From NCBI GenBank assembly GCA_963813025.1, contig CAWEXO010000013.1, forward strand, positions 608,001 through 672,000: a DNA stretch of 64,000 nt, written 5' to 3'. Under the pieces are notes generated by a model, which was given only the letters and a program-made list of their open reading frames with translations, was not told the origin of the DNA and searched no databases. Positions 5,570 to 28,758 of the stretch are shown here, one piece after another. This DNA comes from an uncultured Verrucomicrobiae bacterium (lineage in GTDB: Bacteria > Verrucomicrobiota > Verrucomicrobiia > Chthoniobacterales > JAFAMB01). The translations under genes and the position numbers were made by a program. The first letter of the stretch is position 1, and the number at the start of each line of letters is the position of its first letter.

Positions 5570-5705
5570 ACTCGCCCTTACGCCCACTCGCCCTTACGCC
5601 CACTCGCCCTTACGCCCACTCGCCCTTACGCCCACTCGCCCTTACGCCCACTCGCCCTTACGCCCACTCGCCCTTACGCCCACTCGCCCTTACGCCCACT
5701 CGCCC
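5570..5705 (+). repeat. 16-bp tandem repeat (ACTCGCCCTTACGCCC) x8.5
   Basis: Exact units read directly. A short degenerate inverted copy lies at 5346-5370. Confidence 0.95.
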
Positions 5706-8961: not shown

Positions 8962-8976
8962 AAGAACTCTCTTTTA

Positions 8977-10954: not shown

Positions 10955-11037
10955 GGGTAGGTACCGAAGCGGCCAAACGGGGCAGACTGTAAATCTGCTG
11001 GCTTACGCCTTCGCTGGTTCGAATCCAGCCCTGCCCA
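10955..11037 (+). tRNA. tRNA-Tyr (GTA), CCA not encoded
   Basis: Acceptor stem GGGTAGG/CCTGCCC, anticodon arm GCAGA-CTGTAAA-TCTGC, long variable arm and T-arm GCTGG-TTCGAAT-CCAGC. Confidence 0.97.
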
Positions 11038-11331
11038 TTTCCGCTGCCAAAGCCTAAGAGCAGCCACCAGAGCGGTTTCAATGGTGGGAGCTGACGCCTG
11101 AACCGGCTGTTTCGTTCGATTTATTCAAAGTGATTCCTTCGATGAAATAGCTGGATTTTGGGCAGTTTGGGTACATTTTTGGTCAGTCGTGGTCAGTCGA
11201 TCTGGACTGACCTCCAATACTCTAAAACCATGAAAACCACTGTCACCCTCACCCATATCGAGGCGTTTAATTGCCCGCACCGTGTGGCATTCACTCGTCG
11301 GACTTAGCCTTGCATTTTTTAAGACCCGGCA

Positions 11332-11886
11332 ATGTCAAAGAAAAAAGGGCGTCCAAGTAAGGCAAAAAATCCAAAAAATGCAGCATGGATGGTAGTGCAT
11401 AAGAAAGCACTCTCCGCACTCTCGGGAGCGATGACTTTGATCGGTTTCATTGTCGCCGTGATTACCTTCTATCCGAGACCCACTGTAACACAGAGCGATC
11501 CGGTGGATCCCAGCAATCCATTCTCAGCATCTTTTACTATCACAAATAACACCTTCATCCCACTTGAACATGTCACTGCATTTCTAGGCATTGGTCAGAT
11601 TGAAAGTGAACCCGCGGCAGCGATCCCGAATTTTCACCCGAATTTTAGCACCCATCTGGTTAAGACGAACGATTGGGAGAACCATTATCTCGGTAGAGAC
11701 GAACGATTTGCTATTACGCCTTCGGATATCTTTTCGAAGGGAAGCGGCAAAATAAGCTTCGCAGACGTTGCGATCGGCATCACGTATAAACCGTGGTTTC
11801 TGCCGTGGAAAATGGAAAAGATGTTCCGCTTTGTAACGCACAAACAACCCAACGGTCTGTACTGGTACTCTTTTCCTTTGAATTAA
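11332..11886 (+). CDS. Hypothetical protein with an N-terminal membrane anchor (element cargo)
   Basis: 184-aa ORF in lower-GC DNA; basic N-terminus followed by one hydrophobic helix. Confidence 0.65.
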   Translation: MSKKKGRPSKAKNPKNAAWMVVHKKALSALSGAMTLIGFIVAVITFYPRPTVTQSDPVDPSNPFSASFTITNNTFIPLEHVTAFLGIGQIESEPAAAIPNFHPNFSTHLVKTNDWENHYLGRDERFAITPSDIFSKGSGKISFADVAIGITYKPWFLPWKMEKMFRFVTHKQPNGLYWYSFPLN

Positions 11887-12188
11887 AGCATCTACCGAAT
11901 GATCAAAACACCAAAGATCAAAACACCAAAAATCGGCCAACAGTGGGGCACCCGTCGCGCGCGCATTAATTCTGCTGCCGCCGGGCGACACTCTCGGCAA
12001 GCTCGGTCTCCATTTCTTTCGCCGGTCGAACAAGTCCCTTCCAAGCTTCTTCTTCTTCGGAATGAGCTAGCGGAGCTCTACGACTTTACCAACTCTTGAA
12101 AACTTTCGTCCTCGCTTATAGGAGAAACTCGAGCACAGGCATCAGAGCCGCCCTCCTCCGAGTCGAGCTTGTGCCTCAGGTCGGCGAA

Positions 12189-12422
12189 CTAGATGCCGCC
12201 GCTCGGAGGATTTAGCGAATCAATCGGTTCGGTTTCGGAGCAGGAGAAATACCGGGCTCTCAGCACACAGCTGACGAAATGCCCTGGCGTAGTTCCCAAT
12301 CGCTGACACTCGGCTCGGATCATGGAAGTTGTCGCTCGAGGCAACTGCCAACCGACGCATTCAGTATTAGCCGGCGGCCGGCCGTTTGGGCGGGAGGCTT
12401 TGACGTGGGTCGCATGACGCAC
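12189..12422 (-). CDS. Small ribbon-helix-helix-like protein, type A copy 1
   Basis: GRPP-x-VGWQLP-helix-G-helix pattern; the reading frame is preserved in the duplicate. Confidence 0.5.
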   Translation of the reverse strand: MRHATHVKASRPNGRPPANTECVGWQLPRATTSMIRAECQRLGTTPGHFVSCVLRARYFSCSETEPIDSLNPPSGGI

Positions 12423-12489
12423 GCCTTCACCGTAGCAGATTTGTCCGGGTTTTTGCTAGGAGCAACTCGAGAGATTTTGTTCCTGGAAC

Positions 12490-12687
12490 ATGCCGACCGC
12501 CACAAAATCTCGCGCCGGACGGCCCCGGCTGGGTGATGAACGGATCGATGTGACTCTGCCGCGATCGGTTGCTAATCAGTTGCGCAGCTTCGAGAATCTG
12601 ACGGGCAAGTACCGCACCCGGATCGTGGCCAATATCATCACAAACGTTCTGGCCGATCCGGAAGCCACGCAACGCTTCCTCCACTAG
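12490..12687 (+). CDS. Small ribbon-helix-helix-like protein, type B copy 1
   Basis: GRPRLGDERIDVTLPRSVANQLRSFENLTGKYRTRIVANII. Confidence 0.6.
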   Translation: MPTATKSRAGRPRLGDERIDVTLPRSVANQLRSFENLTGKYRTRIVANIITNVLADPEATQRFLH

Positions 12688-12876
12688 AACTTGAACGCCT
12701 CCCGATTTGAGCGTTGCTTCGTTATGCCCATAATTTCACCTATCATCTTAGATCGTCCTACTCGGCCAAGCTCTCCAAAGGTGCACCGGATGACTCCTCG
12801 AGTCCCTCGTCCCTCCAGGAGAAGTTCAAGCAGGGGCACTAGCCACCGAGTCGAGTTCGTGCATCAAGTCGGCGAA

Positions 12877-13113
12877 CTAGATGCGGCCGCGCGGAGGCTT
12901 TAGCCCGAGTAGAGTCTGTTCGGTTTCGGAGCAGGAGAAATACCGGGTCATCAGCACACAGCTGACGAAATGCCCCGGCGTAGTTCCCAACCGCTGACAC
13001 TCGGCACGGATCATGGAGGTGGTCGCTCGGGGCAACTGCCAACCAACGCATTCAGTATTAGCCGGCGGCCGGCCGTTTGGGCGGGAAGCTTTGCCGTGAG
13101 TCGCATGACGCAC
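12877..13113 (-). CDS. Small ribbon-helix-helix-like protein, type A copy 2
   Basis: Nearly identical to 12189-12422 over its first ~63 aa. Confidence 0.5.
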   Translation of the reverse strand: MRHATHGKASRPNGRPPANTECVGWQLPRATTSMIRAECQRLGTTPGHFVSCVLMTRYFSCSETEQTLLGLKPPRGRI

Positions 13114-13181
13114 GCATTCACCGTAGCAGATTTGTCCGGGTTTTTGCTAGGGCCGACTTTGCCCGCGAAAAGTCTGTTTCA

Positions 13182-13499
13182 ATGGCGAGAAAGATCGGCC
13201 GCCCACGAGTCGGTGATGAGCGAATGCAGTTGACCATTCCTCGCAACGTTTTCGACCGATTGCGTGAACTGGAGACCCAGACCGGCGAATACCGAACGGC
13301 GATCGCTCGCAAAATCATTGCTCAAGAGCTGATGGGCGCAGACTCCGGAATTTGCCAGCTGGCCGACTCCCAGAGGACCGCACCTCCACCAAAGTCCAAT
13401 CTCCAGCACACCAGCAAGCTTTTGCCGCCTCCGGCTGAAGTCGAGCTGGATCGGCTCTTGAACCTGGCTGGCGATCTCGGGGGGAGTCTGCCTCGCTAG
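13182..13499 (+). CDS. Small ribbon-helix-helix-like protein, type B copy 2
   Basis: MARKIGRPRVGDERMQLTIPRNVFDRLRELETQTGEYRTAIARKII is a diverged paralog of 12490-12687. Confidence 0.6.
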   Translation: MARKIGRPRVGDERMQLTIPRNVFDRLRELETQTGEYRTAIARKIIAQELMGADSGICQLADSQRTAPPPKSNLQHTSKLLPPPAEVELDRLLNLAGDLGGSLPR

Positions 13500-13508
13500 G
13501 AGGAAACC

Positions 13509-13661
13509 ATGGCGCAGGGTGGAAAACGACCAGGAGCAGAGCGACGCCCGATCGAGGACAGCATCACCGTAAAATGGCGGGTGCCTCGGGATGTGCATTC
13601 GGCGATAGTGGCTGAAGCTCCCCCGGCAGCAATTGCGGTGATCACCGGCTGCCACTCATAA
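13509..13661 (+). CDS. 50-aa RHH-like ORF, possibly degenerate (absent from the ORF track)
   Basis: Strong SD AGGAGG, then MAQGGKRPGAERRPIEDSITVKWRVPRDVHSAIVAEA. Confidence 0.4.
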   Translation: MAQGGKRPGAERRPIEDSITVKWRVPRDVHSAIVAEAPPAAIAVITGCHS

Positions 13662-13823
13662 AAACGTGGAGTCGAATTCGCACGTCATTCGCAGCGCTTT
13701 GTGCCGCTTCGGATTGGTTTCGGCGAGTTGCCCTTTTTTCCTTCGCTCGGCGCTACCACTCTCAAATTACCGCCGCTTCGTCGTGGACTTCGCCAACCGC
13801 GTCGGCAGTACATGTCGTTACGG

Positions 13824-14630
13824 TTATGGTGCTGAAGGGCTAGCAGTGCCGGAACCGGTGACTGCTGAGACAGCACTCCCTTGAGGAGGATGGTCGAGTA
13901 GATTCATCACTTGAATTTCGGAAGACTGCAGAGCGATCAACTTTTTGTCTGAATTCTGGACAACCACATAACGGTTCAATTCGAGGACGACCCGCCCTTC
14001 GAACTTTGAATGATCTTTCATCATGATCGTCCGAAAAGAGAGTATCGGACCGGCGATCGTTAGGAAATAGAGTCCTGTCCAAAAGGAAAATGCTAATATC
14101 CAAATAGTAATCTGAATGAAGGAAGAGAAGAGCGGAGGCAACCGAAACAAGTGGACCCAACCCGGGATTAAGGTTAAGGACACCAACAGGACTACAGTCG
14201 GACAGTACCACCATGCGAACAACGTCAAAAGGATGTCCTTAGGAAAAGCTTGTATGACGACGAAGACGATTCCAAGGACTGCATAAAAGAGAGGCTTGTT
14301 AAGGTTGGCCAACCAACGCGGCAAGCTGATAATTGACTCACGGAATCGCTTCCTGTCCTCGACGTTAGCCGCCAAGACGCTGGGAGGCCGCTCAATACCC
14401 AAGCGAAACAACATGCCAATAACAACCCCAACCCCCATCGATGTCGGAATTGCCCAGCTGGGTGCAACCCGGAGATAGTCGGAGAGATCACAGAGTCCTA
14501 AGAGGTTGTGATTCAACCCCAACGAGAGGCCAGAGACGAAAAGAAGCGAGGCAAGGAATACGACAGCGCTGAGGAAAGTAAATCCGACTGTGAGATTCGG
14601 CCACTTCGATGAAATGTCATTATCCGCCAT
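13824..14630 (-). CDS. Hypothetical multi-pass membrane protein (element cargo)
   Basis: About 5 hydrophobic segments and a small soluble C-terminal domain. Confidence 0.65.
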   Translation of the reverse strand: MADNDISSKWPNLTVGFTFLSAVVFLASLLFVSGLSLGLNHNLLGLCDLSDYLRVAPSWAIPTSMGVGVVIGMLFRLGIERPPSVLAANVEDRKRFRESIISLPRWLANLNKPLFYAVLGIVFVVIQAFPKDILLTLFAWWYCPTVVLLVSLTLIPGWVHLFRLPPLFSSFIQITIWILAFSFWTGLYFLTIAGPILSFRTIMMKDHSKFEGRVVLELNRYVVVQNSDKKLIALQSSEIQVMNLLDHPPQGSAVSAVTGSGTASPSAP

Positions 14631-14803
14631 CTTGAGAGGAGTGAACCCAGGCCGATTTGTCGAGGCCTGGTCGACAAGTATTTCAACGCAAACTGGTCCA
14701 AATCGAGCTGAAAAAACGGCCTCGACTGAAAGATGGGGAGGAGACATCCCTTGCCCCCCTTAAGTGGTCTCTACTTCCATGAAACCCGTCCCGCCGAATC
14801 CAA

Positions 14804-15439
14804 ATGATGATTGAAACCGCGGGAGACTTCTACAAGGCGATTGCTGAACGCCGGCGCGAGGAGCGAGCGGCAATCAAAGCTTTTATTGAAGGTGCAGTAT
14901 CCGGAGATACCGAATTGTTTAGTTCCGGGATCCGCTTGGTAGACAAGCATTGTGTTTGGAATCGCGCCTTCCGGGCCATAGCCCGACACTCAGCCGCAAA
15001 AGAGGTACGCGACTACTTTCAATGGTCATGGCTATCCTCGGGCGACCACATTCGCGGCGAGGTGAACAGCGATCTTATCCTAATTGCCGGATTACGGGCT
15101 CTCTTGCCTCCTTATCGGGGCTCGGCAATCCGGCTCTACCGCGGGGACAGCGCACATAACCGCCGCCACCGCACCTACGGACTATCTTGGACTGCAAATA
15201 TCGACATTGCGCGGGCCCACGCCGGAGGCATCTGGCGCACCTTCAAGGGCGGAAGCGTAGTGCTTACCACCGTAGCTTCCCCCGAATCAACCATTTGGGC
15301 TTGCAAGGCTGAAGGTGATCACTACCAAGAGGACGAATATGTTGTCGATCGTCGCTGGTTAAAAGTCGATGTGATTGAGCGGCTTTCTCAGATTTCGATT
15401 AGAGAACATGCAAAGAAGAAAAAGGATGCCGAACAGTAA
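14804..15439 (+). CDS. Hypothetical protein, possible R-S-E clade ADP-ribosyltransferase-like fold
   Basis: LYRG ... GLSWT ... EDEYVV motif order. Confidence 0.5.
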   Translation: MMIETAGDFYKAIAERRREERAAIKAFIEGAVSGDTELFSSGIRLVDKHCVWNRAFRAIARHSAAKEVRDYFQWSWLSSGDHIRGEVNSDLILIAGLRALLPPYRGSAIRLYRGDSAHNRRHRTYGLSWTANIDIARAHAGGIWRTFKGGSVVLTTVASPESTIWACKAEGDHYQEDEYVVDRRWLKVDVIERLSQISIREHAKKKKDAEQ

Positions 15440-15469
15440 CCAGCCGCCTAGTGCTCTGGAATTCGCCAA

Positions 15470-17491
15470 TCACCACACAACCGGCCGGTTCTGGACTCCG
15501 TACCGGCGCTGGGGCGTGGGCGTGCTCTCTCCTTCCACGCTGATCGAACGTTCAGCCGGCTGATAGACGATATCCCGTCGCACCGGCTGTGCTCCCCATT
15601 GAGCTGTGGTCACGCCCGGCTGGGATTGGGAATGATCGCCTGCAGGAGCTTCAGTCTGGACCGGTATCTCCTCCAGGTTGAGCCGCAAGGATTCAGTCGC
15701 GACCATGATCATGGCGAGGCAATCCAGGGCTTCGTTCCGTCGGCTCCCGATCCGTTTCCAGCTTGAGACCCGCACGCCGTTCCGGTAGCGGACCTCCTTT
15801 GTCTCCGCACGAAGTTGGGCAAAGAAGTTGTCGTCAAAGCCGCGGACCGCTTCTCCGGAAGGACCGCAACAGAGATGGATGTAGCCTGGTCCCGGCTCAG
15901 TCAAAGCCAGGGCTTCGGCTACCCGGTCCTTTGCCAGGTCAGGCGAAACGTTGACCACCTGACAACGCTCCGTCGTATTCTGGCCGATCCGGTAAAGCTG
16001 GCTCCCGGAAAGCGACAGCCCGCGGGAAGCGATCAAGTGCGGATGCCGTTTCTTGCATTCGCGATAGACCGCGCTGCCATGATGGCCGCCAGCATCCATG
16101 AGTGAACGCCGGATTCGCATAAAGCTGCCATCGCCGCGTTTCCACATCTTTTGCACAACCAGCGCGTCCAGCTGCTTGGCGACCTCGGCGGTCTGGGTCG
16201 TGATCGAGCCTTGAATCTCACCGAACTCCAGGAGCCAGAGCTCGCGGCCTTTGCCGACTCCGGCAACCAGATACTGCAGATAATGATCTTGGGTATCAAC
16301 TGCACCTACCAACACCTTGACTGGATCAGGCGCCTCGGCCGGGTAGACCTCACGCCGGTCGTTCAGGTTCTCGCTTGCCACCTCAATCCGAGGCGGAACG
16401 TAGGGCTCAGCCAACCTGGTATTGAGAAACGCTCGGAACGCGCTGGAATCGCCCGCCTGGCGCAGATGCTCGGCCGCTCTGAACTCAGAGTGAACGATGC
16501 GCCAGTCAATGAAGGGACTCACCCAGCAGCCTAGGTGGAACCCGCGACGGAACGGGTGCTGGGCGTGCGCTCGCCACTCTCCGTCTCGTTCCAGCCAAGT
16601 CGCCTGATCATAGCTCCGGCCGCACTCCAGGCAGGTGCACTCGCCACTCTCAAAGATCATCTCCGGCAACCCGAGAATCTGGAAATGACCGTGAGGACAC
16701 TGACTGTAGTAGTGCTCTTCGGTTGAATCCCGGAATAGCGCGGTGATCCGGCAGCTTTGTTCCTCTACGGGCGAGCTGGAATAGATGATCTTGGCTTGGG
16801 AGCCGAACGTGCTCGTTCTGACCTTCGCCAGCTGGATGACATCGCCTTCCGCGGTTCGACCGACCGCCATCAAAGGAAGCCGGCTGACTTCCTCGAAAAA
16901 CAGGTACTTGATCGGGCGCATCGAAAGACCCGTCGCGCTCAGGCCGGCGACGATAGCAAGCTGGCAACCGTTCTCAAAACTCTTGCGGAACATCGAGTTA
17001 TCTGATCCGGGTCCGCCGATCTGTTCGGACACGAAGGGCCGAGCAATCGGCGAATCTCGGAGCATCGGATCAATCCGGTCCAGGCTCATCGAGCGGCAAG
17101 CTTGCAAGGTTGGGCAAATCAGGAGCATCGGCGCCGGATCGGTGGCCGAGAAAAACAAGATTGGATTTAGCGTGGCAAACTCGGACTTGCCGACTTGAGA
17201 CGCGGCCATGATACACACTTCGCGGACGTTAGTGTCGGCGATTGCGCGGGTGATCTCCTCGCCATAAGGAACCCGGCTGAAATGCCAGGGACCAGGCTCG
17301 GCGCTGGCTTCTACTGACAGTCTCCGGTAGCGCTCCAGCCAGGCGATCACATCCATCGGTTCAGGTGGTCGAGCGATCAGAGCAAGCTGTCCGAAGAGCT
17401 CTCGCAAAGCCCGAGGGTCATCATAGCCCAGGCCCTGAGAAACGCGTTCCTGTGGCTTCCTAGCGCGTTTGTTTTTGGCTGAACTCGCCAT
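15470..17491 (-). CDS. Phage terminase large subunit, lambda GpA family
   Basis: SAEPGPW..SRVPY, Walker A ASQVGKSE, zinc-finger cysteines, nuclease motifs VDTQD, MDAGGH and RNEALDC. Confidence 0.92.
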   Translation of the reverse strand: MASSAKNKRARKPQERVSQGLGYDDPRALRELFGQLALIARPPEPMDVIAWLERYRRLSVEASAEPGPWHFSRVPYGEEITRAIADTNVREVCIMAASQVGKSEFATLNPILFFSATDPAPMLLICPTLQACRSMSLDRIDPMLRDSPIARPFVSEQIGGPGSDNSMFRKSFENGCQLAIVAGLSATGLSMRPIKYLFFEEVSRLPLMAVGRTAEGDVIQLAKVRTSTFGSQAKIIYSSSPVEEQSCRITALFRDSTEEHYYSQCPHGHFQILGLPEMIFESGECTCLECGRSYDQATWLERDGEWRAHAQHPFRRGFHLGCWVSPFIDWRIVHSEFRAAEHLRQAGDSSAFRAFLNTRLAEPYVPPRIEVASENLNDRREVYPAEAPDPVKVLVGAVDTQDHYLQYLVAGVGKGRELWLLEFGEIQGSITTQTAEVAKQLDALVVQKMWKRGDGSFMRIRRSLMDAGGHHGSAVYRECKKRHPHLIASRGLSLSGSQLYRIGQNTTERCQVVNVSPDLAKDRVAEALALTEPGPGYIHLCCGPSGEAVRGFDDNFFAQLRAETKEVRYRNGVRVSSWKRIGSRRNEALDCLAMIMVATESLRLNLEEIPVQTEAPAGDHSQSQPGVTTAQWGAQPVRRDIVYQPAERSISVEGESTPTPQRRYGVQNRPVVW

Positions 17492-18014
17492 TTTTGTCCG
17501 AATCCGGATTCTGGAGCAATACGGACAAAGTTGCGAGAGCATCCAATATTTCCCCTTCCAAGACTGCCGATACCTCCAGGTGATCTTTGGCTTGGAACAG
17601 CCGTCGGCTTACCCGTGCAGGGAGGGATAAGAGTTGCCGGCGGAAGACCGTGATCGCTTGCCCGAAGCTCGCCAATACCTGCGCCTGAGGAACCAGCGCG
17701 CCGCGGCGCACCGCCACCTCCAGTTCTGTCCGAGCACGGGACGCGGCAGCGCCGTCAGCCCGTTCCCTGAGCCATTTGCGCCGAGCTTGCGCGTCATCCC
17801 GGCGTTGATAATCCACATAAGCGCTGAGCGTTGCGATCAGTGGGTACAGGTTCTGGTTAGTGTTCTGTGGGTTGATCTTGACCGGGAGCACTCCGCTCCG
17901 CCCCAGCTTGGACACCTCCGTGTCGGTGATCCGGAGAATTTGAGCAATCTCCGAAGTGGTCACCTCCAGCTCGCATAATTCTTCCAGGATCGGCGGTCGA
18001 AGTTTGCGCCCCAT
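17460..18014 (-). CDS. Phage terminase small subunit (Nu1-like)
   Basis: N-terminal wHTH (EIAQILRIT...SGVLP) and coiled-coil region ending RGALVP...LLSLPAR; directly upstream of GpA. Confidence 0.8.
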   Translation of the reverse strand: MGRKLRPPILEELCELEVTTSEIAQILRITDTEVSKLGRSGVLPVKINPQNTNQNLYPLIATLSAYVDYQRRDDAQARRKWLRERADGAAASRARTELEVAVRRGALVPQAQVLASFGQAITVFRRQLLSLPARVSRRLFQAKDHLEVSAVLEGEILDALATLSVLLQNPDSDKNGEFSQKQTR

Positions 18015-18073
18015 CGGCTACAACCCGTACAGCTTTTTGTTAGGATTGTGAAAAAGTTTCCCTGAGATTTTGT

Positions 18074-18116
18074 GATCTGCTGCACCCGCTGGCTCGGAAA
18101 GTTCACGAAAGGATCC
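18074..18116 (-). other. Putative cos site (cosQ/cosN-like)
   Basis: Minus strand reads GGATCCTttc...(22 nt after the heptamer)...GGGTGCAGCAGATC, just upstream of terS. This resembles the lambda cosQ (GGGTCCT) to cosN arrangement. Confidence 0.5.
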
Positions 18117-18151
18117 GCACCCAGGGGTTCAAAACATTCGGGGCAAATGTT

Positions 18152-18451
18152 TCATTGGCTCGCCCGCAGCAAAACATCGGGATGACATGGTTGGTCAAGC
18201 CGGCACCAGCAAGCCAAGTCGTGACCGCGCAACAGGTGAAGGTTGTCCCGCATCCATTGTGCTCGGTGATCATCTGAATGAAGCAGCCAGTCTTCGAAGA
18301 GACGGACTGCAGTTGCGGCATCTGGCACGGACACATCCCCGACTCGGAACGGATTTCCAAAGTGTCCTCCCCATGTCACTACGACAGCACCGGGGGGGTT
18401 CCGATAGCCACGGACACGACGCAGCTGAACGCCATGCGGCTCAAGACTCAT
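18152..18451 (-). CDS. DUF4326-like phage protein
   Basis: FGNPF ... LRGHDLACWC...PCH.DVL. Confidence 0.8.
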   Translation of the reverse strand: MSLEPHGVQLRRVRGYRNPPGAVVVTWGGHFGNPFRVGDVSVPDAATAVRLFEDWLLHSDDHRAQWMRDNLHLLRGHDLACWCRLDQPCHPDVLLRASQ

Positions 18452-18549
18452 GGGAAGAATAGATTCGCGGCTACAGGGGTGGGCCGTGGGGTAGCCGGTG
18501 CACGTGCTCTGCTTTAGGTTGGGGACTGGAGGATGGGAGGGGGATGGGT

Positions 18550-19254
18550 TTAGGGGCTAGTCTTTTTAGCTTCTGCCTCGAACGCTTCCCGCTTCTGTAA
18601 AAGCGCGGCAATCTCCTTCTCCATGGCCGCGGGGCGCAGCTCGGAGGTAGGAGATACCCCGAGATGCCTGACCAGTTCTGGCGGACAAAACTTATTCAAA
18701 GCTTGAACACCGAACGCATACTTTGCCACATCCGCCAGGCCGGCTGCGGGATCGATCCGCTCTTTGAGCCATTCGACTACGGCAATGACGCGCTGAGCCC
18801 GGAGTGTTTCGGCCTGTTGTTGCAACAAGGTCTTTGCGCAATCAAGCCGGGTCCTAAGTTCTTCAGCGGCGGCCTGTCGTTTCTGGCTGGTCTTCTGCAA
18901 CCGCGATTGCAAAACACGGGTTCTGGCCTGAGCAACCGAAAGTTCAGCGACCAAGCTCTCCTCGTCCTCCCGCTCGTCATTGGTGAGACGCTCCTCGGCG
19001 GCCTTGGCTGAGGTAAGCTTGGCGTTCAATTCGGTTTCCTGGAGGGCGAGCTTCCGAAAAATGTCATGGGCCTTCTCCAACGTCAGCCAGACGTCGCCTG
19101 GATCGGCCGATTTTCGGAAGGGAATTGCCGGCACCTGAGGTGCATTAGCCAACAGTTCTGGAGGATAGGATGGAGGCGGAGCCTCGCGGACTGGGAGTGC
19201 CGGAGTTGATGGAACAATGGGTGGACGGACGGGGGATTCAGTCGTCGGGTTCAT
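18550..19254 (-). CDS. Hypothetical coiled-coil protein
   Basis: Pro-rich N-terminus and long helical heptad region; translationally coupled to the upstream gene. Confidence 0.65.
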   Translation of the reverse strand: MNPTTESPVRPPIVPSTPALPVREAPPPSYPPELLANAPQVPAIPFRKSADPGDVWLTLEKAHDIFRKLALQETELNAKLTSAKAAEERLTNDEREDEESLVAELSVAQARTRVLQSRLQKTSQKRQAAAEELRTRLDCAKTLLQQQAETLRAQRVIAVVEWLKERIDPAAGLADVAKYAFGVQALNKFCPPELVRHLGVSPTSELRPAAMEKEIAALLQKREAFEAEAKKTSP

Positions 19255-19499
19255 TTGTTTCGAGCTGCTGCCTTTTTGAGAGAAGTAATAATCGGGGAAG
19301 GCTGCTTCGAGTTTTCGGCCCGGGTTGATCTCAGGTACTCGGCTTCGCTTTTGGGAAGCGTAGCTTTGCTTTTTACTGGAGGGCGGAGGCTAGCGGCGAT
19401 AAGCCGCCCGGCGTGATCGGCTGGGGAACGACCGAGCAACTGGGCGCCTTCGCGAAGCCGCTGGTAGTCGCTGCTCGATAGCTGGATGGTAAGTGTCAT
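19251..19499 (-). CDS. Small hypothetical protein, RHH/CopG-like N-terminus
   Basis: MTLTIQLSSSDYQRLREGAQLLGRSPADHAGRLI; 4-bp overlaps with both neighbours. Confidence 0.55.
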   Translation of the reverse strand: MTLTIQLSSSDYQRLREGAQLLGRSPADHAGRLIAASLRPPVKSKATLPKSEAEYLRSTRAENSKQPSPIITSLKKAAARNK

Positions 19500-19729
19500 G
19501 AGTGGGATCTTTCTATTTTTGGGTTACAGGAAAACTTAATGGAGAGCCCCTCGAATTGGCCGGCCACTGAGGAAGGCAGCAGCCAGGCCTGGAGACTGAC
19601 GGTACCGCTTTCCCGATAAAGCACGCCAACGAAATCAGGCTGCCAAAGTTCGGTTTTGGAAGACTTCCGATTGAGCCTTATTGTGCAGGCATCCAGGCTT
19701 TCGAAGAGCCGTGGGAAACTTGTTTTCAC
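19496..19729 (-). CDS. Small hypothetical protein
   Basis: Coupled ORF within the operon; contains QPDFVG. Confidence 0.5.
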   Translation of the reverse strand: MKTSFPRLFESLDACTIRLNRKSSKTELWQPDFVGVLYRESGTVSLQAWLLPSSVAGQFEGLSIKFSCNPKIERSHS

Positions 19730-20211
19730 AAAGAGTTTCGTTTCAGCTCCTCGCTGAAAGCGGTCCTGAAGGTTTTCAGGTACGCCTCATCAAAAGTGGC
19801 GTAACGCTGAGTATCTAGTTCGGCCCGATCATTGTCAGAAATTACGGCGGCAAAGTAAACCGACCCTTCTTCTGGTGGGACGACCTCGTAGATTTGCACT
19901 TCGTGACTTGGCGAATTCCACCGGGAACGCCAGAGGGCGTTGTCACGCGTGAAGGTGAGCTGACGCCTCCGCTGTGCGAGTACAGCTCGGATCAGGGTGC
20001 GATTAATCTGGCCGGAGTAGACCGGGCCGTGCGCCGAGGAAAGCACGCCGGTTAGCTCAAAACTGGTGCAACCTTCGTAGAGGTTACCGCACTCAGGGCC
20101 GAGACACCTCCCAGTCATTCGGTCACTGGCCTCGTCATAGGAAAACTCAAAAACAGATCCGCATCTCGTGCAGGTGCGGAGGGTTCTGTAACTCCAGGCT
20201 TGGGTGGACAT
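19726..20211 (-). CDS. Hypothetical protein with N-terminal CxxC...CxxxxC zinc-finger-like motif
   Basis: CTRCG...CLGPECG. Confidence 0.55.
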   Translation of the reverse strand: MSTQAWSYRTLRTCTRCGSVFEFSYDEASDRMTGRCLGPECGNLYEGCTSFELTGVLSSAHGPVYSGQINRTLIRAVLAQRRRQLTFTRDNALWRSRWNSPSHEVQIYEVVPPEEGSVYFAAVISDNDRAELDTQRYATFDEAYLKTFRTAFSEELKRNSL

Positions 20212-21080
20212 AGGGATTTTTTGTGGGTTTGTGGGGTTTAGGATGGTCTATGGAAATTGGTACGAGTTCGGTTTTGGGCAGTCATGACTTTATGATCAGT
20301 GCTCGTCCGCCTCCATAATGCGTTACGCACGGCCTCTGACACATGCTTTGTACGCAAAGCTCTTCTTCGCGCTCGATGTTTGGCGGGACATAGCCACTAG
20401 CCGCTATGGTCACCGGCTTAGTAAGACCTCTTAAGATAAGGTCCTCAGCTGGCAGTGATGCTGGCACTGAACCGCGAAATCTTTCGGCGAGGCCAAGGCA
20501 ACAGCAAAAAGGCCAGGAGCTGGCCAAGGAAGAGACGACGTTTTACTTGCTTTGTTCTCATAGGGTAGAAACGAGTGAACTGACTGAATAGGGTCTTTCA
20601 TGCTGATGGCGGTGGAAGGCGACCATTCAAAAACTGAACCAGCCCGGATTAGGGCATCGCGCGTTTGGTCGAAACATCAGCCTCGGGGGTTTAGCGTTTC
20701 TCAATCCAGAGCGCCAGACTTTGGAAAACAAGGTGGCGCAACAGGAGCAGCTCCTTAAGTTCAGCGCGGTCCAACGAGCGTTGGAATTTCAGAGTGGTCA
20801 GTTCTTTGAACCGATCGTAGCGCTCCACGAAGGAGCGGGAATCCGCATCACTCCGGGTTCGTAACTCGCTCACGACGGTGGGTTCGGGCATGTTCCACAA
20901 GAATGTTCCATAAAGAACGCGGTTAGACAAAGAAGAGAAGGAAAGAAGAGATCCTTCCCACTTAAGCTTCTCCACTTTAGTAAATAGTAATAGAAGAGAA
21001 GAATAAGAAAGAAACAAGGAACGGGGTACGTCTTCCCGAAGCTGCCGGGAAGGTACCTGCACGAAGCTGGCGGGAAGGTA

Positions 21081-23098: not shown

Positions 23099-23105
23099 GC
23101 TTGCC

Positions 23106-23834
23106 CTACTCCACGCCAGCCAGGTTCTGCATGATCGGATGTTCCATGGAATCGATCACCCGATTCTTGAAGGCTAGCCGCAGAATTTCGCCAAAAGATA
23201 CCTCCGGCCAAATCGGTTCGGGCATCTTTCCGTTAGGCCGGACATAGGCATAACAGCCGCCTTCGGCATAGACACGCAACCATTCGGTTTTGCACATATC
23301 GGCAATCTCTCTGGCGGTTCTCCAATAATCATTGTCCCTGGCCCCATCCAGGGGGAGGCGTATTTTCCAGACGAAAGGCTTTTCCGCGTGGCGCTCCAAA
23401 GCCAGACAAAGAATGACACTTTTCATGAGCACCTTGTATTCCTCTGCCAGCTCCTGCAAAAAGGGAGGAGAAATCAGGTAGGTATCCCTTTCCATCCCTG
23501 CCTCATCGGTGTCTTCAAAGATGTAAGTCAGGTGCTGATAGTCTTCCCCGGGATGCACCCGACAAAAGGAGCCAGGCCGCGGAACTTTTCTAATGCTGTA
23601 GCTGGTGACTAACTTCTTAGCCGGGGCTTTTAGCGTTGCCTGGCTCAAACGCATGTTGACCGGGTCGAATGGGTCAAATGCGGGTTTTGGTTCGCTGCGT
23701 GAAGCTTCAACCGGTTCTGGCTGAGCCGACGGACTTACTTCGGATATGTGGTTTTGGGCGCCATCCGAGCTGAATGTATCAAAACTAACTGTCTCGCGTT
23801 TTTTCATAAAAGTTAGATTGCCGGGGGTTTTCAC
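23106..23834 (-). CDS. Conserved-looking hypothetical protein upstream of PolA (possible ssDNA-binding partner)
   Basis: Aromatic-rich beta pattern (IRKVPRPGSFCRVHP, FVWKIRLP, EWLRV, PIWPE); ends 7 bp before the polymerase start. Confidence 0.65.
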   Translation of the reverse strand: MKTPGNLTFMKKRETVSFDTFSSDGAQNHISEVSPSAQPEPVEASRSEPKPAFDPFDPVNMRLSQATLKAPAKKLVTSYSIRKVPRPGSFCRVHPGEDYQHLTYIFEDTDEAGMERDTYLISPPFLQELAEEYKVLMKSVILCLALERHAEKPFVWKIRLPLDGARDNDYWRTAREIADMCKTEWLRVYAEGGCYAYVRPNGKMPEPIWPEVSFGEILRLAFKNRVIDSMEHPIMQNLAGVE

Positions 23835-23837
23835 TGA

Positions 23838-24191
23838 TTAGGTTTGAAACTCTAGCTGCCGCCCATCCCGTTTAGCCTTGCGCGGCCTGCGGGGCAGCTC
23901 GTAAAGCGTAAACACTTCGGGTAGGAGACAGGAGCAGCTCACCGCGGTAGGTATCCACCACCGGTGGTTCTCGTTCGTAATTCGGGAGTCTGCTCGCGCC
24001 GCAAATAATACGACGAGCGGCTGCTGGCACTTATCGCAGCTAAGTTCCCGGTGCTTGTTCTCTCTCCAGCAGGGAAGAGAATTAAGCAGCGCAAACTGGG
24101 TGCCGCGGACTTCTAAGAATTCTGGTCTTTTAACGGTAACACGTTTCATAATTATTGGTTTTCTTCCCCCTCTGGGAACCCTCCCTCTCAA
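23838..24191 (-). CDS. Hypothetical protein
   Basis: Coupled ORF in the operon; contains CDKC and CSC. Confidence 0.4.
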   Translation of the reverse strand: MRGRVPRGGRKPIIMKRVTVKRPEFLEVRGTQFALLNSLPCWRENKHRELSCDKCQQPLVVLFAARADSRITNENHRWWIPTAVSCSCLLPEVFTLYELPRRPRKAKRDGRQLEFQT

Positions 24192-24556
24192 GGGCGCTCA
24201 CTATCATCTTTTCTGAGACTGTTTAAGATAGGTCCTGTCGTGCGATTAAACCGGGTACCATATGCTCGCTTGCCTGCCCATCGCCTTCTGGTGAGTTCCT
24301 CGACCTTTGATTTTAGTTCCGCCAAGTCGTCGCTGAACATGCTCCAGAGAGGAGCGGCCAATTCCGGGAGCCTTTTCGGAACGCCGATAAAGATGCACTG
24401 GAAGCGTTCTCCCGGTTCACCTGAACTTTCTTTTGTGTAGAACTCGAACAATCCATTTCGCGTTTCGACGGCGGGTTCTGGCAGTAGCGGGCGATAGCCG
24501 TCCAAAATAGTGGCGTTAGTAAATCTCATAGGCTCTCTCCGTTCTTTGCTTGTCAT
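24188..24556 (-). CDS. Hypothetical protein
   Basis: Operon-like ORF with a 4-bp overlap. Confidence 0.45.
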   Translation of the reverse strand: MTSKERREPMRFTNATILDGYRPLLPEPAVETRNGLFEFYTKESSGEPGERFQCIFIGVPKRLPELAAPLWSMFSDDLAELKSKVEELTRRRWAGKRAYGTRFNRTTGPILNSLRKDDSERP

Positions 24557-24644
24557 GGATAATTTCTGATTTCGGCTCCTAAGTTTCGGCCGCTATCTTC
24601 GATGATGAAAACGGCTGAGCCGCTCCAGAGTAGTTCCAGGGAGC

Positions 24645-25469
24645 TCATGCCGCCTCTCCTTCTAACAATCTTCGGATAACGACTTGCTGGTGACTTTCGC
24701 GTTCCTGTACGTGTTCCAGCGGTTCAGGCAAAAGTTTTTCCAGTCGATTGCGTAAAATCTCGACGATGATTCGTTGACTCAAGGCTTCGGTTTCTACCGC
24801 TTCGTGTTGCCCGCCGTCCTTGTAACGACGATCCTGCTTGATAATGACAGGGAGCTGGTATCGCTCGACCTGTTCCAGCATGAGCGCTAGTCGTTCCCAG
24901 CACAGTTCGCCTACTTCACGTTCCAGTACGCGCCAAGTATTCTGCTCAATCAAATTTCCGCATAGGTCGTAGTCGCCCAGATAAATTACCTGATGAGAAG
25001 GACGCAGAATCGGGGCGATATCCGTGTGAAGAAATCCTCCACATTGACCATTGGTTGGAGCAATCCGGACGCCGTAATGGCGGGCGACTGCGCGTAAGAC
25101 ACCAGCGAGCGAGCGGCTTTCAGTAAGGATTAAGGGGGCGTTACCGTTCCACGGATCAAGCCGCGCTGCTGACAACACCCCTAGTACCCATTCTCTGACC
25201 GTAGTTGAACCGGTGAAGTCTTCCAGAGATCGGGTTTCATCCACGATCCAGTCCCAAGGAATGGCGCCGGACTCACGCAAGTCCGTCAGCGCATCGCTCA
25301 TATCTTGGTCCGGCCGTCGGCCCGCACCCGCCTTCTTCTCTTTAGAAACGACTCCGCGCGTGATCAGCTCATAGTACAAGAACCGCGGCGAGGTCGGGAG
25401 CGCCTGGTCGTGCTCGTGCTCCTTTACTAGCTCAAACAACGCGTCGCGTAGCCTGCCAATTTTGCTCAC
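24645..25469 (-). CDS. Spo11/topoisomerase VI-A-like wHTH-TOPRIM protein
   Basis: PRFLYY (candidate catalytic Tyr), IPWDWIVDETR, conserved E (TES), YLGDYD (DxD), ERLAL...YQLP and ETEAL. Confidence 0.7.
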   Translation of the reverse strand: MSKIGRLRDALFELVKEHEHDQALPTSPRFLYYELITRGVVSKEKKAGAGRRPDQDMSDALTDLRESGAIPWDWIVDETRSLEDFTGSTTVREWVLGVLSAARLDPWNGNAPLILTESRSLAGVLRAVARHYGVRIAPTNGQCGGFLHTDIAPILRPSHQVIYLGDYDLCGNLIEQNTWRVLEREVGELCWERLALMLEQVERYQLPVIIKQDRRYKDGGQHEAVETEALSQRIIVEILRNRLEKLLPEPLEHVQERESHQQVVIRRLLEGEAA

Positions 25470-25502
25470 TCACTTCCTCCTTGGCCTGAGACCGTCCACC
25501 AG

Positions 25503-26123
25503 TTAAGGGGTCAAAACTCGTTCGGCAGGGTCATAGTAGCGGGTGCTCGAATCAGTGGCTCGCGAAGCGGCTCCCAGACTTGATCCGTTTTGCTTAACTG
25601 GTGGACACTGACCCCCTTTATTTCGCCATCTGCGTTTCTTTGCTGTATCGGTCACCTTCCGACGCCTGATCCGACACTTGGCGCAGTACCGTTTTCGGGG
25701 TTCGATTCGGTGTTTTCCGCAGTCTGGGCACCGCCGGGTTATCGGCTGAACAACTACGGTCTCCGGGAAAGCCTCGCGATAGAGCTGTGCCGCTTCCCGA
25801 AATGTTTTGCCTTGGGTGAATGTTGGCCAATCCCGCTCGCCCCGCTTTTCCATCGGCAGGACGCTTTCTTCGAAGTACGGACAACGTTGGCCCAGGGCGA
25901 GCAGACATCGGCTGCCGGCCTTCTGCCACCGGAAGTGGCAGGCAGTTAGGAGATCTACGCCTGTCCCGAGACAGGTGCCGTCGGAACAAAAATTCACGCA
26001 ATGCGTTTTAGCCTGGTAAAAAACGGACCGCAGCTTCTGGGCGTGGCCATTAGCGGACGGGGCTGGGCCCACCGCGTTTGCTTGGCCAAGACAGCTCATA
26101 AACGCACCTCTTGGTCCCGACAT
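25503..26123 (-). CDS. Hypothetical Cys-rich zinc-finger protein
   Basis: HCVNF..C..C..CPYFE and CPDC..RYCAKC. Confidence 0.55.
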   Translation of the reverse strand: MSGPRGAFMSCLGQANAVGPAPSANGHAQKLRSVFYQAKTHCVNFCSDGTCLGTGVDLLTACHFRWQKAGSRCLLALGQRCPYFEESVLPMEKRGERDWPTFTQGKTFREAAQLYREAFPETVVVQPITRRCPDCGKHRIEPRKRYCAKCRIRRRKVTDTAKKRRWRNKGGQCPPVKQNGSSLGAASRATDSSTRYYDPAERVLTP

Positions 26124-26395
26124 GCGGGATTGCGTTTCGGAGAACGAGACCTGGGCGGGAAGACTTCCCGCTTGGTTGGTTTAAGTTGCACTGAGGCAAC
26201 GATGGGGGTATTTGACATCGCGTTTCTTTCTTCGGGTCGTGATTCTTTGCTGGGTCACGACCCCTTTTTTCTTTGTGAGGCGGAATTTGGTTCCGGCTCC
26301 GCCTCGTTTGGACCGGTGCCAGCAGGGTGCTGGCGAAATGGTCAAGTCCGCGGCTCATTTTGTTTTAAGGCAAGGGAACCTTCGAGATCTGAGGA

Positions 26396-26605
26396 TTATT
26401 CTGCGATCGATGCGCAAACGATTTCGCTTTCCAGATAGCGCCGCACCTGCTCGGCATCGTAAAAAAAGGACCGGTAGCCATCCTTTCTGTAGTCTATTAA
26501 TCGGAGTTTGCGCAGCGTATCAAGTTTCCACGGCGAACACCCTGTGTCCGCACAGAGGCGAAGCGTTTCGGCCTTCGAGCTCCACTTACGTTTTGAAGGA
26601 GTCAT
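26396..26605 (-). CDS. Excisionase/AlpA-like HTH protein
   Basis: TGCSPWKLDTLRKLRLI...FFYDAEQVRRYL; divergent from the repressor. Confidence 0.6.
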   Translation of the reverse strand: MTPSKRKWSSKAETLRLCADTGCSPWKLDTLRKLRLIDYRKDGYRSFFYDAEQVRRYLESEIVCASIAE

Positions 26606-26755
26606 GGTTGGTAAATTCAATTTTCAGTCGAGAGATAGAACAACAGATTAGCAACGACTGCACAAGAAATATTTTGAAAGATCCTAATATTGCTATCTGA
26701 TTCCTTTTAATCCTTGTATTCGTAGGACAATGGAGTGACTCTTGCGCTGAAAGTC

Positions 26756-27595
26756 ATGCCACGTAGACCTGCTCAATCACACGTCTTGCGCACGGTCCGG
26801 GAACGGGCGGGTTTAACTCAGCGCGTTCTTGCGGACCGGATTGGATGCACTCCGGGAATGCTGCAGCAGTTCGAGAATGGAAGGGCGCGACTCTCGGAGA
26901 AACTGGCGAAACGAATCTCCTTTGAACTCGGCTGTGATTGGAGCCAGCTCCTGGACAACATGGAGCCGGAAAGGCCGATAGTGCCTTCCGGCGAAGAATT
27001 TACGACCGAATTCTATCGCACGTACGTCAGAAGCGGCTTCGCGGAACAATCGCAGGCGGACGGGGATGGCCAAGCGATTGGGTTTATGGTCCAAGCAATT
27101 TTAGATGCTGCTAATCAGGAGGGGCGTTATCGAAGCGTTACGGCATCGCTTTTCAGCGTGCTCAGGGACTTCATAAAGGAGCTAAGACTAGGACAAAGCA
27201 TATACGAGCTGCTGAAAAACTACGGCATGGGCGTACAAGGCCAGAACCCTAAAACCGATTTTCTAACTCGGTCCTGGTCTGCTGAAGACCACGTTCGCCA
27301 GGCTCTTGAGACGCTGACCTGGATCGGGCGTGACCCACAAATACGAGCTAATCGAGACCAGGTCAGGCCGCACCTGTACAAAATTCTTGAGTTTCGAGCC
27401 GCTACGCAGCCTTCGGCGGAAAAATCGACCAATACGCCTTCGCGGCCTTGGGAGTCACCCGATGACGATAAAAACGCTGAAACAAGCGCAATCCGCCCGA
27501 GTGCCCCATCGACTGAGCCGTTGCCGCGTCGTTCTGGCCGTAAACGGAGTGATAAGAGCCGTACGAGTGCCGGAGCGCATCCTGCGGCCACCTGA
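26756..27595 (+). CDS. XRE-family HTH transcriptional repressor
   Basis: LRTVRERAGLTQRVLADRIGCTPGMLQQFENGR. Confidence 0.85.
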   Translation: MPRRPAQSHVLRTVRERAGLTQRVLADRIGCTPGMLQQFENGRARLSEKLAKRISFELGCDWSQLLDNMEPERPIVPSGEEFTTEFYRTYVRSGFAEQSQADGDGQAIGFMVQAILDAANQEGRYRSVTASLFSVLRDFIKELRLGQSIYELLKNYGMGVQGQNPKTDFLTRSWSAEDHVRQALETLTWIGRDPQIRANRDQVRPHLYKILEFRAATQPSAEKSTNTPSRPWESPDDDKNAETSAIRPSAPSTEPLPRRSGRKRSDKSRTSAGAHPAAT

Positions 27596-28643
27596 GGAGA
27601 TTGGAGGCGTCAATTCCGCGCGCACCGAGTTGTTCAGCCGCGCGCTCCCGAGCAATCGCTAAATGCGCAAGGTAAGCGTCGTCCTTTAAACCGACGAACT
27701 CCTGACCTTGATGTTCAGGCGCATAACGTTTGAGCCAAGCCAACAGGTTGTCTTCGATATGGATAAAGCGGTGAGAGCCGACATTTTTGCTTTTGTCGAT
27801 TGTAATCTGACGTGTTTTGAGATCGATCGCAGACCATCGCATAGGAATTATCTCACTTTCTGGTCGACATCCGGCAAAAGCTCCCAAACAGATGGCCGGG
27901 ACAATCTGCGGACTGGCTGCAGACAGAAGCGCTTTTAATTCCGCTGGGGTGAGGATGCCGGGGCGTTTGGGCGGTATGGTGGCTGTTTCAACATCCGGTA
28001 TCGGATTTTTGACGATATATCCACGTTTTCGGGCGTGACTGAAAAAGACGCCCAGACACTGACGGTACCCCTTGCGGGTGGTTGGAGCCAACTCGAGTGA
28101 GCGCAACCAATCGTCAATCTCTGCAGATGAAATTTCATGCATCGGGCGTGGACTAAAAGCATTGACAAAACGAGTCACCTTGAGTCGGAAATCCTTCAGA
28201 TAACGAGTGGCGGCACCATCCTGCTTCTTGTATTCCAGTGCCTCGGCCAAGATCGCCTCGAGCGGCTTTGAATTGGTACGCAGCGGTAATCCGTTGCGGA
28301 GATAGAAATCAATACACTGGCTCAAAGTCACATCGTGAGATTGCAACCGTGCGAAGGCGCGGCGAGCCTCTTCTTCCTGGCTGGGTGTCAGCTCAATCAG
28401 CGACTGCTGCCCATGATTCATCTGACGTTTGCGCACCTGTTCGGCTTCATGCCGGGCTCGGGCTTCGCTGGGATAAGAGTTGCGCACTCGCCTTAGCTTG
28501 CCGGTCAGAGGATCCGGTATCCGGCCGAGATCGACGCACCATGAAGCGGTGCCGCTTTTGTTCTTAATCGGATAAACGACTGGCCACTCCCGATTGATCG
28601 GGGAGCGCCCTTTCTGTGGCGATTTGTTCTTCTGACGGCCCAT
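27402..28643 (-). CDS. int: Tyrosine recombinase / integrase
   Basis: Catalytic set R (AGCRPES), K (KSKN), LRHSY, MGH and Y (RFY); adjacent to the att repeat. Confidence 0.93.
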   Translation of the reverse strand: MGRQKNKSPQKGRSPINREWPVVYPIKNKSGTASWCVDLGRIPDPLTGKLRRVRNSYPSEARARHEAEQVRKRQMNHGQQSLIELTPSQEEEARRAFARLQSHDVTLSQCIDFYLRNGLPLRTNSKPLEAILAEALEYKKQDGAATRYLKDFRLKVTRFVNAFSPRPMHEISSAEIDDWLRSLELAPTTRKGYRQCLGVFFSHARKRGYIVKNPIPDVETATIPPKRPGILTPAELKALLSAASPQIVPAICLGAFAGCRPESEIIPMRWSAIDLKTRQITIDKSKNVGSHRFIHIEDNLLAWLKRYAPEHQGQEFVGLKDDAYLAHLAIARERAAEQLGARGIDASNLLRWPQDALRHSYGSYHSVYGQNDAATAQSMGHSGGLRLFQRFYRHRVTPKAAKAYWSIFPPKAA

Positions 28644-28695
28644 AAGGCCGCAATTTTGGGCAGGTATTGGGCAGTCGCAAGTGGTTTCTCGAGGG

Positions 28696-28758
28696 AAACG
28701 GGACAGACTGTAAATCTGCTGGCTTACGCCTTCGCTGGTTCGAATCCAGCCCTGCCCA
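28696..28758 (+). repeat. att direct repeat: duplicate of the tRNA-Tyr 3' portion
   Basis: 63 bp matching 10975-11037 with a single mismatch. Confidence 0.96.

Follow-up and report, generated by a model that had tools for sequence, protein, structure and literature searches.

An att-bounded island with its own cos site and a complete terminase but no portal gene: a probable helper-dependent satellite in a Verrucomicrobiae bacterium

What use is a DNA-packaging motor to a mobile element that has no head of its own to fill? This question is raised by a 17.7-kb integrated element, E1, in a 64,000-nucleotide stretch of an uncultured Verrucomicrobiae bacterium (contig CAWEXO010000013.1, positions 608,001 to 672,000; here called the window, with positions counted from its first letter). 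Described satellites borrow the large terminase subunit (TerL) of a helper phage or build a whole head, whereas E1 carries a cos site, TerL and the small subunit (TerS) and has no recognizable virion gene. As judged from its sequence and that of its relatives, E1 is probably a helper-dependent satellite whose terminase cleaves the element's own cos site and docks on the proheads of a helper. If this is true, the TerL-portal contact alone would be enough to hijack proheads, and annotated “terminase-only prophage remnants” would include live mobile elements outside current satellite models. Here, E2 to E5 denote the other terL loci of the source genome (G000, 80% complete), G001a and G001b are islands of a congeneric genome (G001), and G041 is a third genome.

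Boundaries and Terminase of E1

E1 is bounded by 63-nt direct repeats of 98% identity at 10975-11037 and 28696-28758, 17,721 bp apart. A first-pass annotation of the window had recognized the att-bounded element, although its start at 10983 falls 8 bp inside the left repeat. Read from the right, an integrase and an opposite-strand repressor are followed by a leftward run of genes to TerS and TerL and then by cargo; only cargo lies between terL and the att site, which is within 4.4 kb of it. The integrase, repressor, Spo11-like protein, PolA, DUF4326 protein, TerS and TerL listed by the annotation are open reading frames (ORFs) in the order given there. Its xis and zinc-finger genes are also present as ORFs, but without a significant family match, and rest on position and Cys motifs. 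When 26 E1 ORFs were scanned against Pfam, PHROG and NCBIfam, no portal, capsid or tail family was matched, in agreement with the annotated absence of virion genes. No primase or helicase family was matched in the same scan, and the sole Walker A match of the element lies in TerL. A lambda-type portal has about 500 aa, and the unassigned ORFs are all too short to encode one; no capsid or portal hidden among the unknown ORFs was detected by the three databases. The two unknowns that were folded gave an SSB-like beta fold (242 aa) and a coiled coil (234 aa). At the orthologous site in G001, ∼3.5 kb of other DNA separates the tRNA-Tyr from a region that matches the window from 58.3 kb onward; E1 and the neighboring island are thus both absent there.

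The cos-like site noted upstream of terS proved to be real. Its pattern, a cosQ-like heptamer, 21 nt and CGGGTGC, is common to E1-E4, G001a and G001b, lies about 60-70 nt upstream of terS in E1, and has the same cosQ-cosN spacing as the joined ends of lambda. It occurs five times in G000 against 0.44 expected, four times directly upstream of terS; the fifth match, at C6:12144, is an orphan away from any terminase and nearly identical to the site of E4. The exact pattern was also found in at least 118 viral loci (80 with flanks; 34 with a GpA terL, nearly always 0.5-0.9 kb downstream). In lambda, it is TerS that guides TerL to cos, and a C-terminal domain of TerL makes the contact with the portal (PMC9026076). 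The E1 TerL has the P-loop AASQVGKS, a nuclease residue, D416, that aligns with lambda D401, and a C-terminal tail that ends YGVQNRPVVW; the P-loop and nuclease residues of the island TerLs likewise align with lambda gpA. Values of dN/dS were 0.12 for terL (at dS 0.69, between two portal-less copies) and 0.19 for terS (E1 versus the G001 copy), and by the measure of such ratios the TerL clade is under purifying selection.

A Family of Portal-less Terminase Islands

E1 belongs to a set of eight related portal-less terL loci in three genomes, five of them in G000, and seven of the eight are att-bounded. A portal was found downstream of terL in none of the eight islands, compared with 13 of 20 loci from the host's order and, among 80 viral GpA loci, 72 of the 74 in which the sequence extended for 1.5 kb or more past terL (the other 6 were shorter), the viral figure being biased upward, to the detriment of our reading, given that IMG/VR favors contigs with virion genes and that the profile was seeded from the same loci. 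The 10 viral seeds sampled for a check with Pfam were all confirmed. No portal was found in the six-frame translation of G000, 80% complete, with this profile or with a second one. In the TerL tree, seven of the eight island TerLs (G001b, which is broken, was left out) form one clade with deep branches and an SH-like support of 99, a value obtained again in a second tree. The portal-less state spans five tRNA targets and several integrases. The annotation had held that full prophages among the close homologs would indicate simple deletion; the closest TerL relatives with context (89%, 55%, 42% and 40% identical) are all portal-less islands. Simple recent deletion from a prophage was rejected on the basis of clade depth and dN/dS.

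E2 (16.3 kb, tRNA-Arg) has a 4-kb replication block that is 96% identical in DNA to that of E1, together with another integrase and a TerL of 55% identity. G001a and G001b (17.0 and 17.3 kb; tRNA-Arg and tRNA-Ser) carry the E1 late module behind helicase/primase genes; one of their TerLs is 89% identical to that of E1, and the other terL, that of G001b, is broken. Three small late ORFs of E1 (82, 77 and 161 aa) are common to E2, G001a and G001b. The island in G041 measures 13.9 kb. E3 (tRNA-Leu, 10.0 kb, att-bounded; G000:C5:89777-99838, L002:3778-13839) combines cos, TerS and TerL with an AAA_25 helicase-like gene, gpE capsid and decoration protein but lacks portal and protease, and can be regarded as a step between E1 and those phage-inducible chromosomal islands that form capsids (cf-PICIs). 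E4 has TerS and TerL, and E5 (18.5 kb) has a primase module and, like E3, keeps head genes or pieces of them; a primase/helicase-type module is present in G001a, G001b, E3 and E5. Four islands with different genes converge in size at 16.3-17.7 kb, and sibling-island cargo gave defense-like matches. PolA, which the annotation had taken to mark the class, does not do so: the same late module stands behind helicase/primase genes in the two G001 islands, and the module of SSB-like, PolA and winged helix-turn-helix (wHTH)-like genes mostly occurs with no terminase nearby. The replication module is interchangeable, and it is the terminase clade that defines the family.

Adjoining terS/terL of E4, at G000:C5:317000-330800 (L377), lies an island with an integrase, xis, primase, HK97-type capsid and tape-measure-like gene, in which no terminase or portal was seen.

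The presence of five terL loci and two capsid-bearing islands in one genome, itself 80% complete, can also be explained by a helper-free consortium, split or resembling a gene transfer agent. Here, heads would be supplied by other islands of the same cell (the gpE capsid and decoration protein of E3, and the HK97-type capsid and tape-measure-like gene on C5), with a portal encoded in the unassembled fifth of the genome. Little credence can be given to such a consortium, given that two profiles detected no portal in G000, that no portal follows terL in the loci of G001 and G041, and that beyond one tape-measure-like ORF no tail genes were seen, although no whole-genome scan for tail families was made.

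Candidate Helper Phages

A separate TerL clade, ∼35% identical to the island TerLs, ends in the tail motif of E1, (F/W/Y)G(A/V)xN(R/K)P. Phages of this clade have the order TerS, TerL, a small opposite-strand ribbon-helix-helix (RHH)-like gene, portal, ClpP-type protease, gpE capsid and FII tail tube, with a portal in 27 of the 30 that have room; three complete members measure 56.7, 57.1 and 57.4 kb, and two members are proviruses. The clade consists of cos myovirus-like soil phages that are the likely helpers of E1, and a specific candidate helper lineage for a terminase-bearing portal-less island can newly be named, namely the phage clade that has its tail motif. The motif is present in 30 of 32 distinct phage-clade tails, in all six island TerLs with context and in four of seven island-clade TerLs without context, against 1 of 121 other GpA tails (1/35, 0/55 and 0/31); the pattern was written after both the island and the phage sets had been seen, which detracts from this comparison. 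Downstream of terL, 28 of 32 clade phages and four of six islands have the opposite-strand RHH-like gene, as against none of 137 other GpA loci (0/38, 0/72 and 0/27). The common tail motif may serve as a sequence-level predictor of helper-satellite pairs. A variant tail ending GSGV(S/C)F was observed in one phage-clade TerL (P0147) and two island-clade TerLs (P0132 and P0133), which hints at tail exchange or at matched helper-satellite pairs.

One of the proviruses, G805, has a 62-nt att-like match (92%) to a tRNA-Ser of G000, has insertion sequence (IS) DNA in common with G000 at 79-84%, and encodes an integrase that has 34-35% identity with the integrases of G001b and G041, both of which also use tRNA-Ser; its host is probably related to that of E1. 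In tandem with this candidate helper prophage, at the same tRNA-Ser att, lies a 16-kb element (G805:C1:47363-63515, L521-L522) with its own integrase, a primase-like gene 46% identical to that of E3, a PF05065 capsid and no terminase match. The proposal that E1 has the same cos as its helper was dropped: the cos patterns fit 5 of 23 clade phages with upstream room, and cosN differs.

Several results weigh against the assignment of these helpers and against a satellite nature of E1. Between islands and phages, the identity of the TerL cores is only ∼35%. In trees made without the tails, each of the two groups is monophyletic, and the approximately unbiased (AU) test does not reject them as sisters (p 0.485). 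The tail and the RHH gene that they have in common may therefore come from a shared ancestor and are no proof that the two are compatible today. No phage-clade TerL was found among 43 family genomes, and no helper prophage in the 80%-complete G000; therefore, the helper-host link rests on one provirus record. Among the islands themselves, two of eight terLs are broken (E5 and G001b), no att was found for E4 or for alphaproteobacterial look-alike loci, and the Walker B Asp is replaced by Glu in the TerLs of E1, E2 and G001a (E1 reads EE).

Up to the gene that precedes the portal, the islands and the phage clade have the same TerS-TerL-RHH order, as would be left by a decayed prophage lineage; the islands would then be remnants of phages of the tail-sharing clade from which the portal and all that follows it had been lost, with the terminase as a passenger. 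The unrejected sister relation, the two broken terLs and the head genes or pieces kept by E3 and E5 are consistent with such decay. It is nevertheless highly improbable: the portal-less state spans a deep clade, five tRNA targets and several integrases, terL keeps its low dN/dS between portal-less copies at dS 0.69, and both att sites are kept. Moreover, active exchange is indicated by E1 and E2, whose 4-kb replication blocks are 96% identical but whose integrases differ and whose TerLs are only 55% identical.

Proposed Packaging Cycle

For E1 as a helper-dependent satellite, the following cycle can be proposed. Induction, probably by the helper, would lift repression, and the integrase would excise a circle. 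The wHTH-like protein would open the AT-rich origin, where PolA and its SSB-like partner would prime and/or elongate; unwinding would occur by strand displacement or through a host or helper helicase, and the product would be concatemers. TerS would bind the cos of E1 itself, packaging thus being independent of helper terminase specificity. TerL would cut cosN, and its C-terminal tail, with the motif (F/W/Y)G(A/V)xN(R/K)P, would attach it to the portal of proheads of the ∼57-kb cos myovirus-like phages. Each head would take up about three 17-kb units (53 kb) or, if it were shrunken, a single unit, and helper tails and lysis would complete the particle. Three units of 16.3-17.7 kb amount to 49-53 kb, or 86-93% of 57 kb, which lies within the packaging range of lambda (78-105%).

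A 234-aa coiled-coil protein is conserved directly upstream of cos/terS in E1, E2, G001a and G001b. It gave four matches (itself included) among 1.84 billion representatives; the 50 fold matches listed were to generic hairpins, and that Sid and Psu do not appear among these 50 is no evidence against such a likeness; no Pfam or PHROG family was matched. It is a candidate, as yet unproven, for head size control.

The same genes could instead act as an interference module, in which cos and TerS/TerL jam or divert a phage, with TerL as a decoy on portals or cutting the phage cos, and the element spreads via the helper's own terminase or by ordinary transduction. With a tail like that of the phages, TerL could occupy helper portals, purifying selection is compatible with any function, and the defense-like matches in sibling cargo and the Glu at the Walker B position of E1, E2 and G001a accord with interference. 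However, each island keeps its own cosQ-cosN directly upstream of its own TerS, the island cosN differs from that seen in the phage clade, the TerL ATPase and nuclease motifs are both kept, and four islands with different genes converge on 16.3-17.7 kb. Interference is therefore considered unlikely.

Comparison with Known Systems

P4 is packaged by a cos mechanism into the heads of a contractile-tailed temperate helper and integrates at a tRNA; its terminase is that of the helper, and P4 itself encodes a primase-helicase, Sid and Psu. E1 resembles P4-like elements in tRNA integration and, to judge from its genes, in cos-type packaging, but gave no family match to the alpha primase-helicase, Sid or Psu. 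Similarity to a lambda-like cos prophage extends to cosQ-cosN, TerS and the GpA TerL, after which E1 lacks the portal, head and tail operon.

As in phage-inducible chromosomal islands (PICIs) of the SaPI and Gram-negative types, E1 has an integrase at one end, a divergent regulator, a replication module, TerS, far-end cargo, no tail or lysis genes and a similar size. By contrast with PICIs, it has a full GpA TerL under selection, and no primase-replicase or capsid-morphogenesis gene was recognized. The cos PICIs are described, in the part of PMC9026076 available, as redirecting the helper's terminase, whereas E1 carries both subunits. SatelliteFinder, as presented in the accessible text of PMC10085698, treats TerL as a cf-PICI marker, and cf-PICIs as set out there resemble E1 in having their own TerS and TerL and in needing a helper for tails; E1 differs in having no portal, capsid, protease or head-tail adaptor/connector genes. 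The sibling E3 has capsid and decoration genes without a portal, and L028, a distant contig with the PolA module, is cf-PICI-like. E1 falls outside both PICIs and cf-PICIs as that text defines them, yet would act as a satellite.

Tycheposons, VEIMEs and EPIPs are small integrative elements, and some tycheposons and VEIMEs carry polymerases and TerS or a capsid gene (10.1101/2020.12.28.424599, PMC9618062, PMC12822802). In the portions of these reports available, TerS or capsid is named, not TerL, and the TerL of VEIMEs is expected to come from the helper. No satellite with TerS and TerL and without a portal was described in the literature searched, a search that left supplements and most subscription papers outside. 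We lean slightly toward the fuller view that the strategy of E1 lies between those of PICI and cf-PICI: it would own cos and the whole terminase, steal only the prohead by means of a helper-compatible TerL tail, kept or re-acquired, and replicate by a helicase-free, self-priming PolA-SSB pair.

Replication Module

The E1 PolA has intact 3′-5′ exonuclease and polymerase motifs, Leu at position B3 of motif B, and no 5′-3′ exonuclease; dN/dS is 0.075 for polA (E1 versus E2) and 0.18 for ssb. Of the loci with room, 64 of 67 have the 242-aa SSB-like gene before PolA, and 74 of 77 have a member of the 110-aa wHTH-like family after it, the profiles used for both counts having been seeded from some of the counted loci. 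The predicted model of the SSB-like protein (pLDDT 84) matched T4/RB69 gp32 best (Z 4.6 and 4.2), and other OB folds also; with Z under 5 the gp32 match is weak, which tells against the assignment. Foldseek returned no match at E 0.001 for this protein, and ESM Atlas no usable match. A predicted PolA-SSB complex scored 0.58 against 0.00 for the best control, a value in the weak class of the tool (scores of 0.60 or lower were obtained for 18 of 157 solved complexes and for both of the mismatches that passed); runs agreed in at least 66% of contacts, with a partner pLDDT of at least 77. The putative replication origin has 30% GC at 20961-21020, with two imperfect direct repeats alongside. Taken as a unit, the SSB-like/PolA/wHTH-like module is a candidate helicase-independent replicase. 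In E2, a 515-aa DUF6602/NucC-like nuclease gene, absent from E1, directly follows the putative origin (L001:10373-11917). The TopoVI-A/Spo11-like toprim protein of E1 has a ParB fusion in G001b and a relative in the candidate helper G807.

Among 50,697 phage records no close PolA was found (best rows 22-26%), and the SSB-like partner was found neither there nor among 72,556 plasmid records. The PolA family is large, with at least 3,466 PolA matches among 8,000 candidates scored; a single-protein scan with PolA gave nothing in viral contigs and two loci in genome contigs. At 20 PolA-module loci (19 of the Bradyrhizobium family, 1 of Elusimicrobiota), integrase was present in 14, TerL in 3 and TerS alone in 2; one of the three TerLs, in L413, is an intact GpA accompanied by TerS but by no portal, another is a fragment and the third is of HK97 type. 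TerL was present in none of 8 further PolA-module loci from the host's order. Sixteen viral loci have PolA, 7 of them with a GpA terL; enough room was left in 2 of these, one of which (L028) has a portal. The module is thus not tied to terminase. The SSB-PolA module stands with TerS/TerL of different clades, one of HK97 type, in L027, L037, L038, L040, L026, L413 and L419, where no portal was seen and the viral contigs have short room past terL. In the cf-PICI-like L028 the module is accompanied by portal and protease-capsid genes, and in L030/L031, which are PICI-like, by two P27-type terS genes only.

Pipolins encode a primer-independent family B polymerase (PMC10061031, in the part available), whereas the E1 polymerase is of family A. 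The same source (Rice 2023), within that part, describes 17 PolA-SSB pairs of CcPol-MP, all beside a helicase, in Bacillota, with SSB between Pol and helicase. E1 is alike in having a family A polymerase beside an SSB-like gene on an integrative element, and binding of the polymerase to the product of this gene is weakly predicted; E1 differs in that the SSB-like gene lies upstream and is larger (gp32-like), in the lack of a helicase and in the wHTH-like gene that follows. The CHEAP polymerases (cluster 15; Czernecki 2023, PMC10201439) are auxiliary bacterial PolAs, the closest subfamily to CcPol, listed in the accessible text without known partners or element context. E1 PolA is similar to them in its intact exonuclease and polymerase motifs and Leu at B3, a likeness of motifs that is found in other clusters as well and is thus not diagnostic.

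Features, Cargo and Surroundings

The features of E1 are collected in Table 1. Scans for promoters and terminators gave chance-level results.

Table 1. Features of E1 and its integration site, in window positions
Feature	Positions	Strand	Remarks
tRNA-Tyr(GTA)	10955-11037	+	Intact; integration target; last 63 nt are the left att
184-aa cargo ORF	11332-11886	+	N-terminal hydrophobic segment; no family match
691-bp tandem duplication	12155-13499		Each copy: small GRPR + RHH-like ORF and small divergent ORF
RHH-like ORFs of the duplication	12490-12687, 13077-13499	+	Opposite to terL; RHH-like by reading of the sequence
Hydrophobic cargo protein, 307 aa	13824-14747	-	Probably multi-pass membrane; no significant family match
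ADP-ribosyltransferase-like cargo, 211 aa	14804-15439	+	R-S-E-type motifs by inspection; phrog_30882; convergent with terL
TerL, lambda gpA type	15470-17542	-	PF05876 + PF20454
TerS	17460-18014	-	phrog_57, E 3e-25
cos site, lambda type	18074-18116	-	cosQ-like heptamer 18110-18116, 21-nt spacer, cosN-like run 18074-18088
DUF4326 protein	18152-18451	-	Family match; present in G001a, absent from E2
Pro-rich + coiled-coil hairpin protein, 234 aa	18550-19254	-	Directly upstream of cos/terS
Three small ORFs (82, 77, 161 aa)	19251-20211	-	Conserved late module; no family match
Putative replication origin	20900-21080		AT-rich stretch + two imperfect direct repeats, directly after wHTH-like gene
wHTH-like protein, 110 aa	21081-21413	-	Fold read from alignment; no database match
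PolA, 570 aa	21386-23098	-	PF00476; family A DNA polymerase
SSB-like protein, 242 aa	23106-23834	-	Predicted beta fold; precedes PolA
Two small ORFs, 117 + 122 aa	23838-24556	-	93-95% identical in E2
TopoVI-A/Spo11-like toprim protein	24645-25469	-	phrog_6247, E 9e-23
Cys-rich ORF, 206 aa	25503-26123	-	Weak zinc-ribbon matches only; Cys motifs
xis-like ORF, 74 aa	26396-26620	-	Divergent from repressor; by position only, no family match
HTH_3 repressor	26735-27595	+	Family matches; strand opposite to leftward run
Tyrosine integrase	27402-28793	-	phrog_1, E 3e-35; frame crosses right att, true start probably further in
Right att repeat	28696-28758	+	63 nt, one mismatch

The + strand RHH-like family of the tandem duplication is the one also found downstream of terL in the candidate helper phages; a solo unit lies at G000 C8:329831-330238, away from any terminase. 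For the ADP-ribosyltransferase-like cargo, Atlas clusters at 0.96 were unnamed, and the nearest named cluster, DRAT at 0.85, is a lead only; this protein is a possible anti-phage effector. PADLOC gave no match for the 11 E1 proteins scanned.

Directly outside the right att, at 29170-30135, lies an AbiJ_NTD4/DUF7014 abortive-infection-like gene. The neighboring island (28800-58300) contains IS3, IS66 and SRAP pieces, a split LigD, and an ECF sigma factor beside a 1251-aa kinase-NACHT protein; the IS pieces and split LigD are consistent with its earlier description as decayed. Arrays of short-period tandem and inverted repeats lie outside E1 at 3976-4233, 5535-5726, 8449-8970 and 36624-36952.

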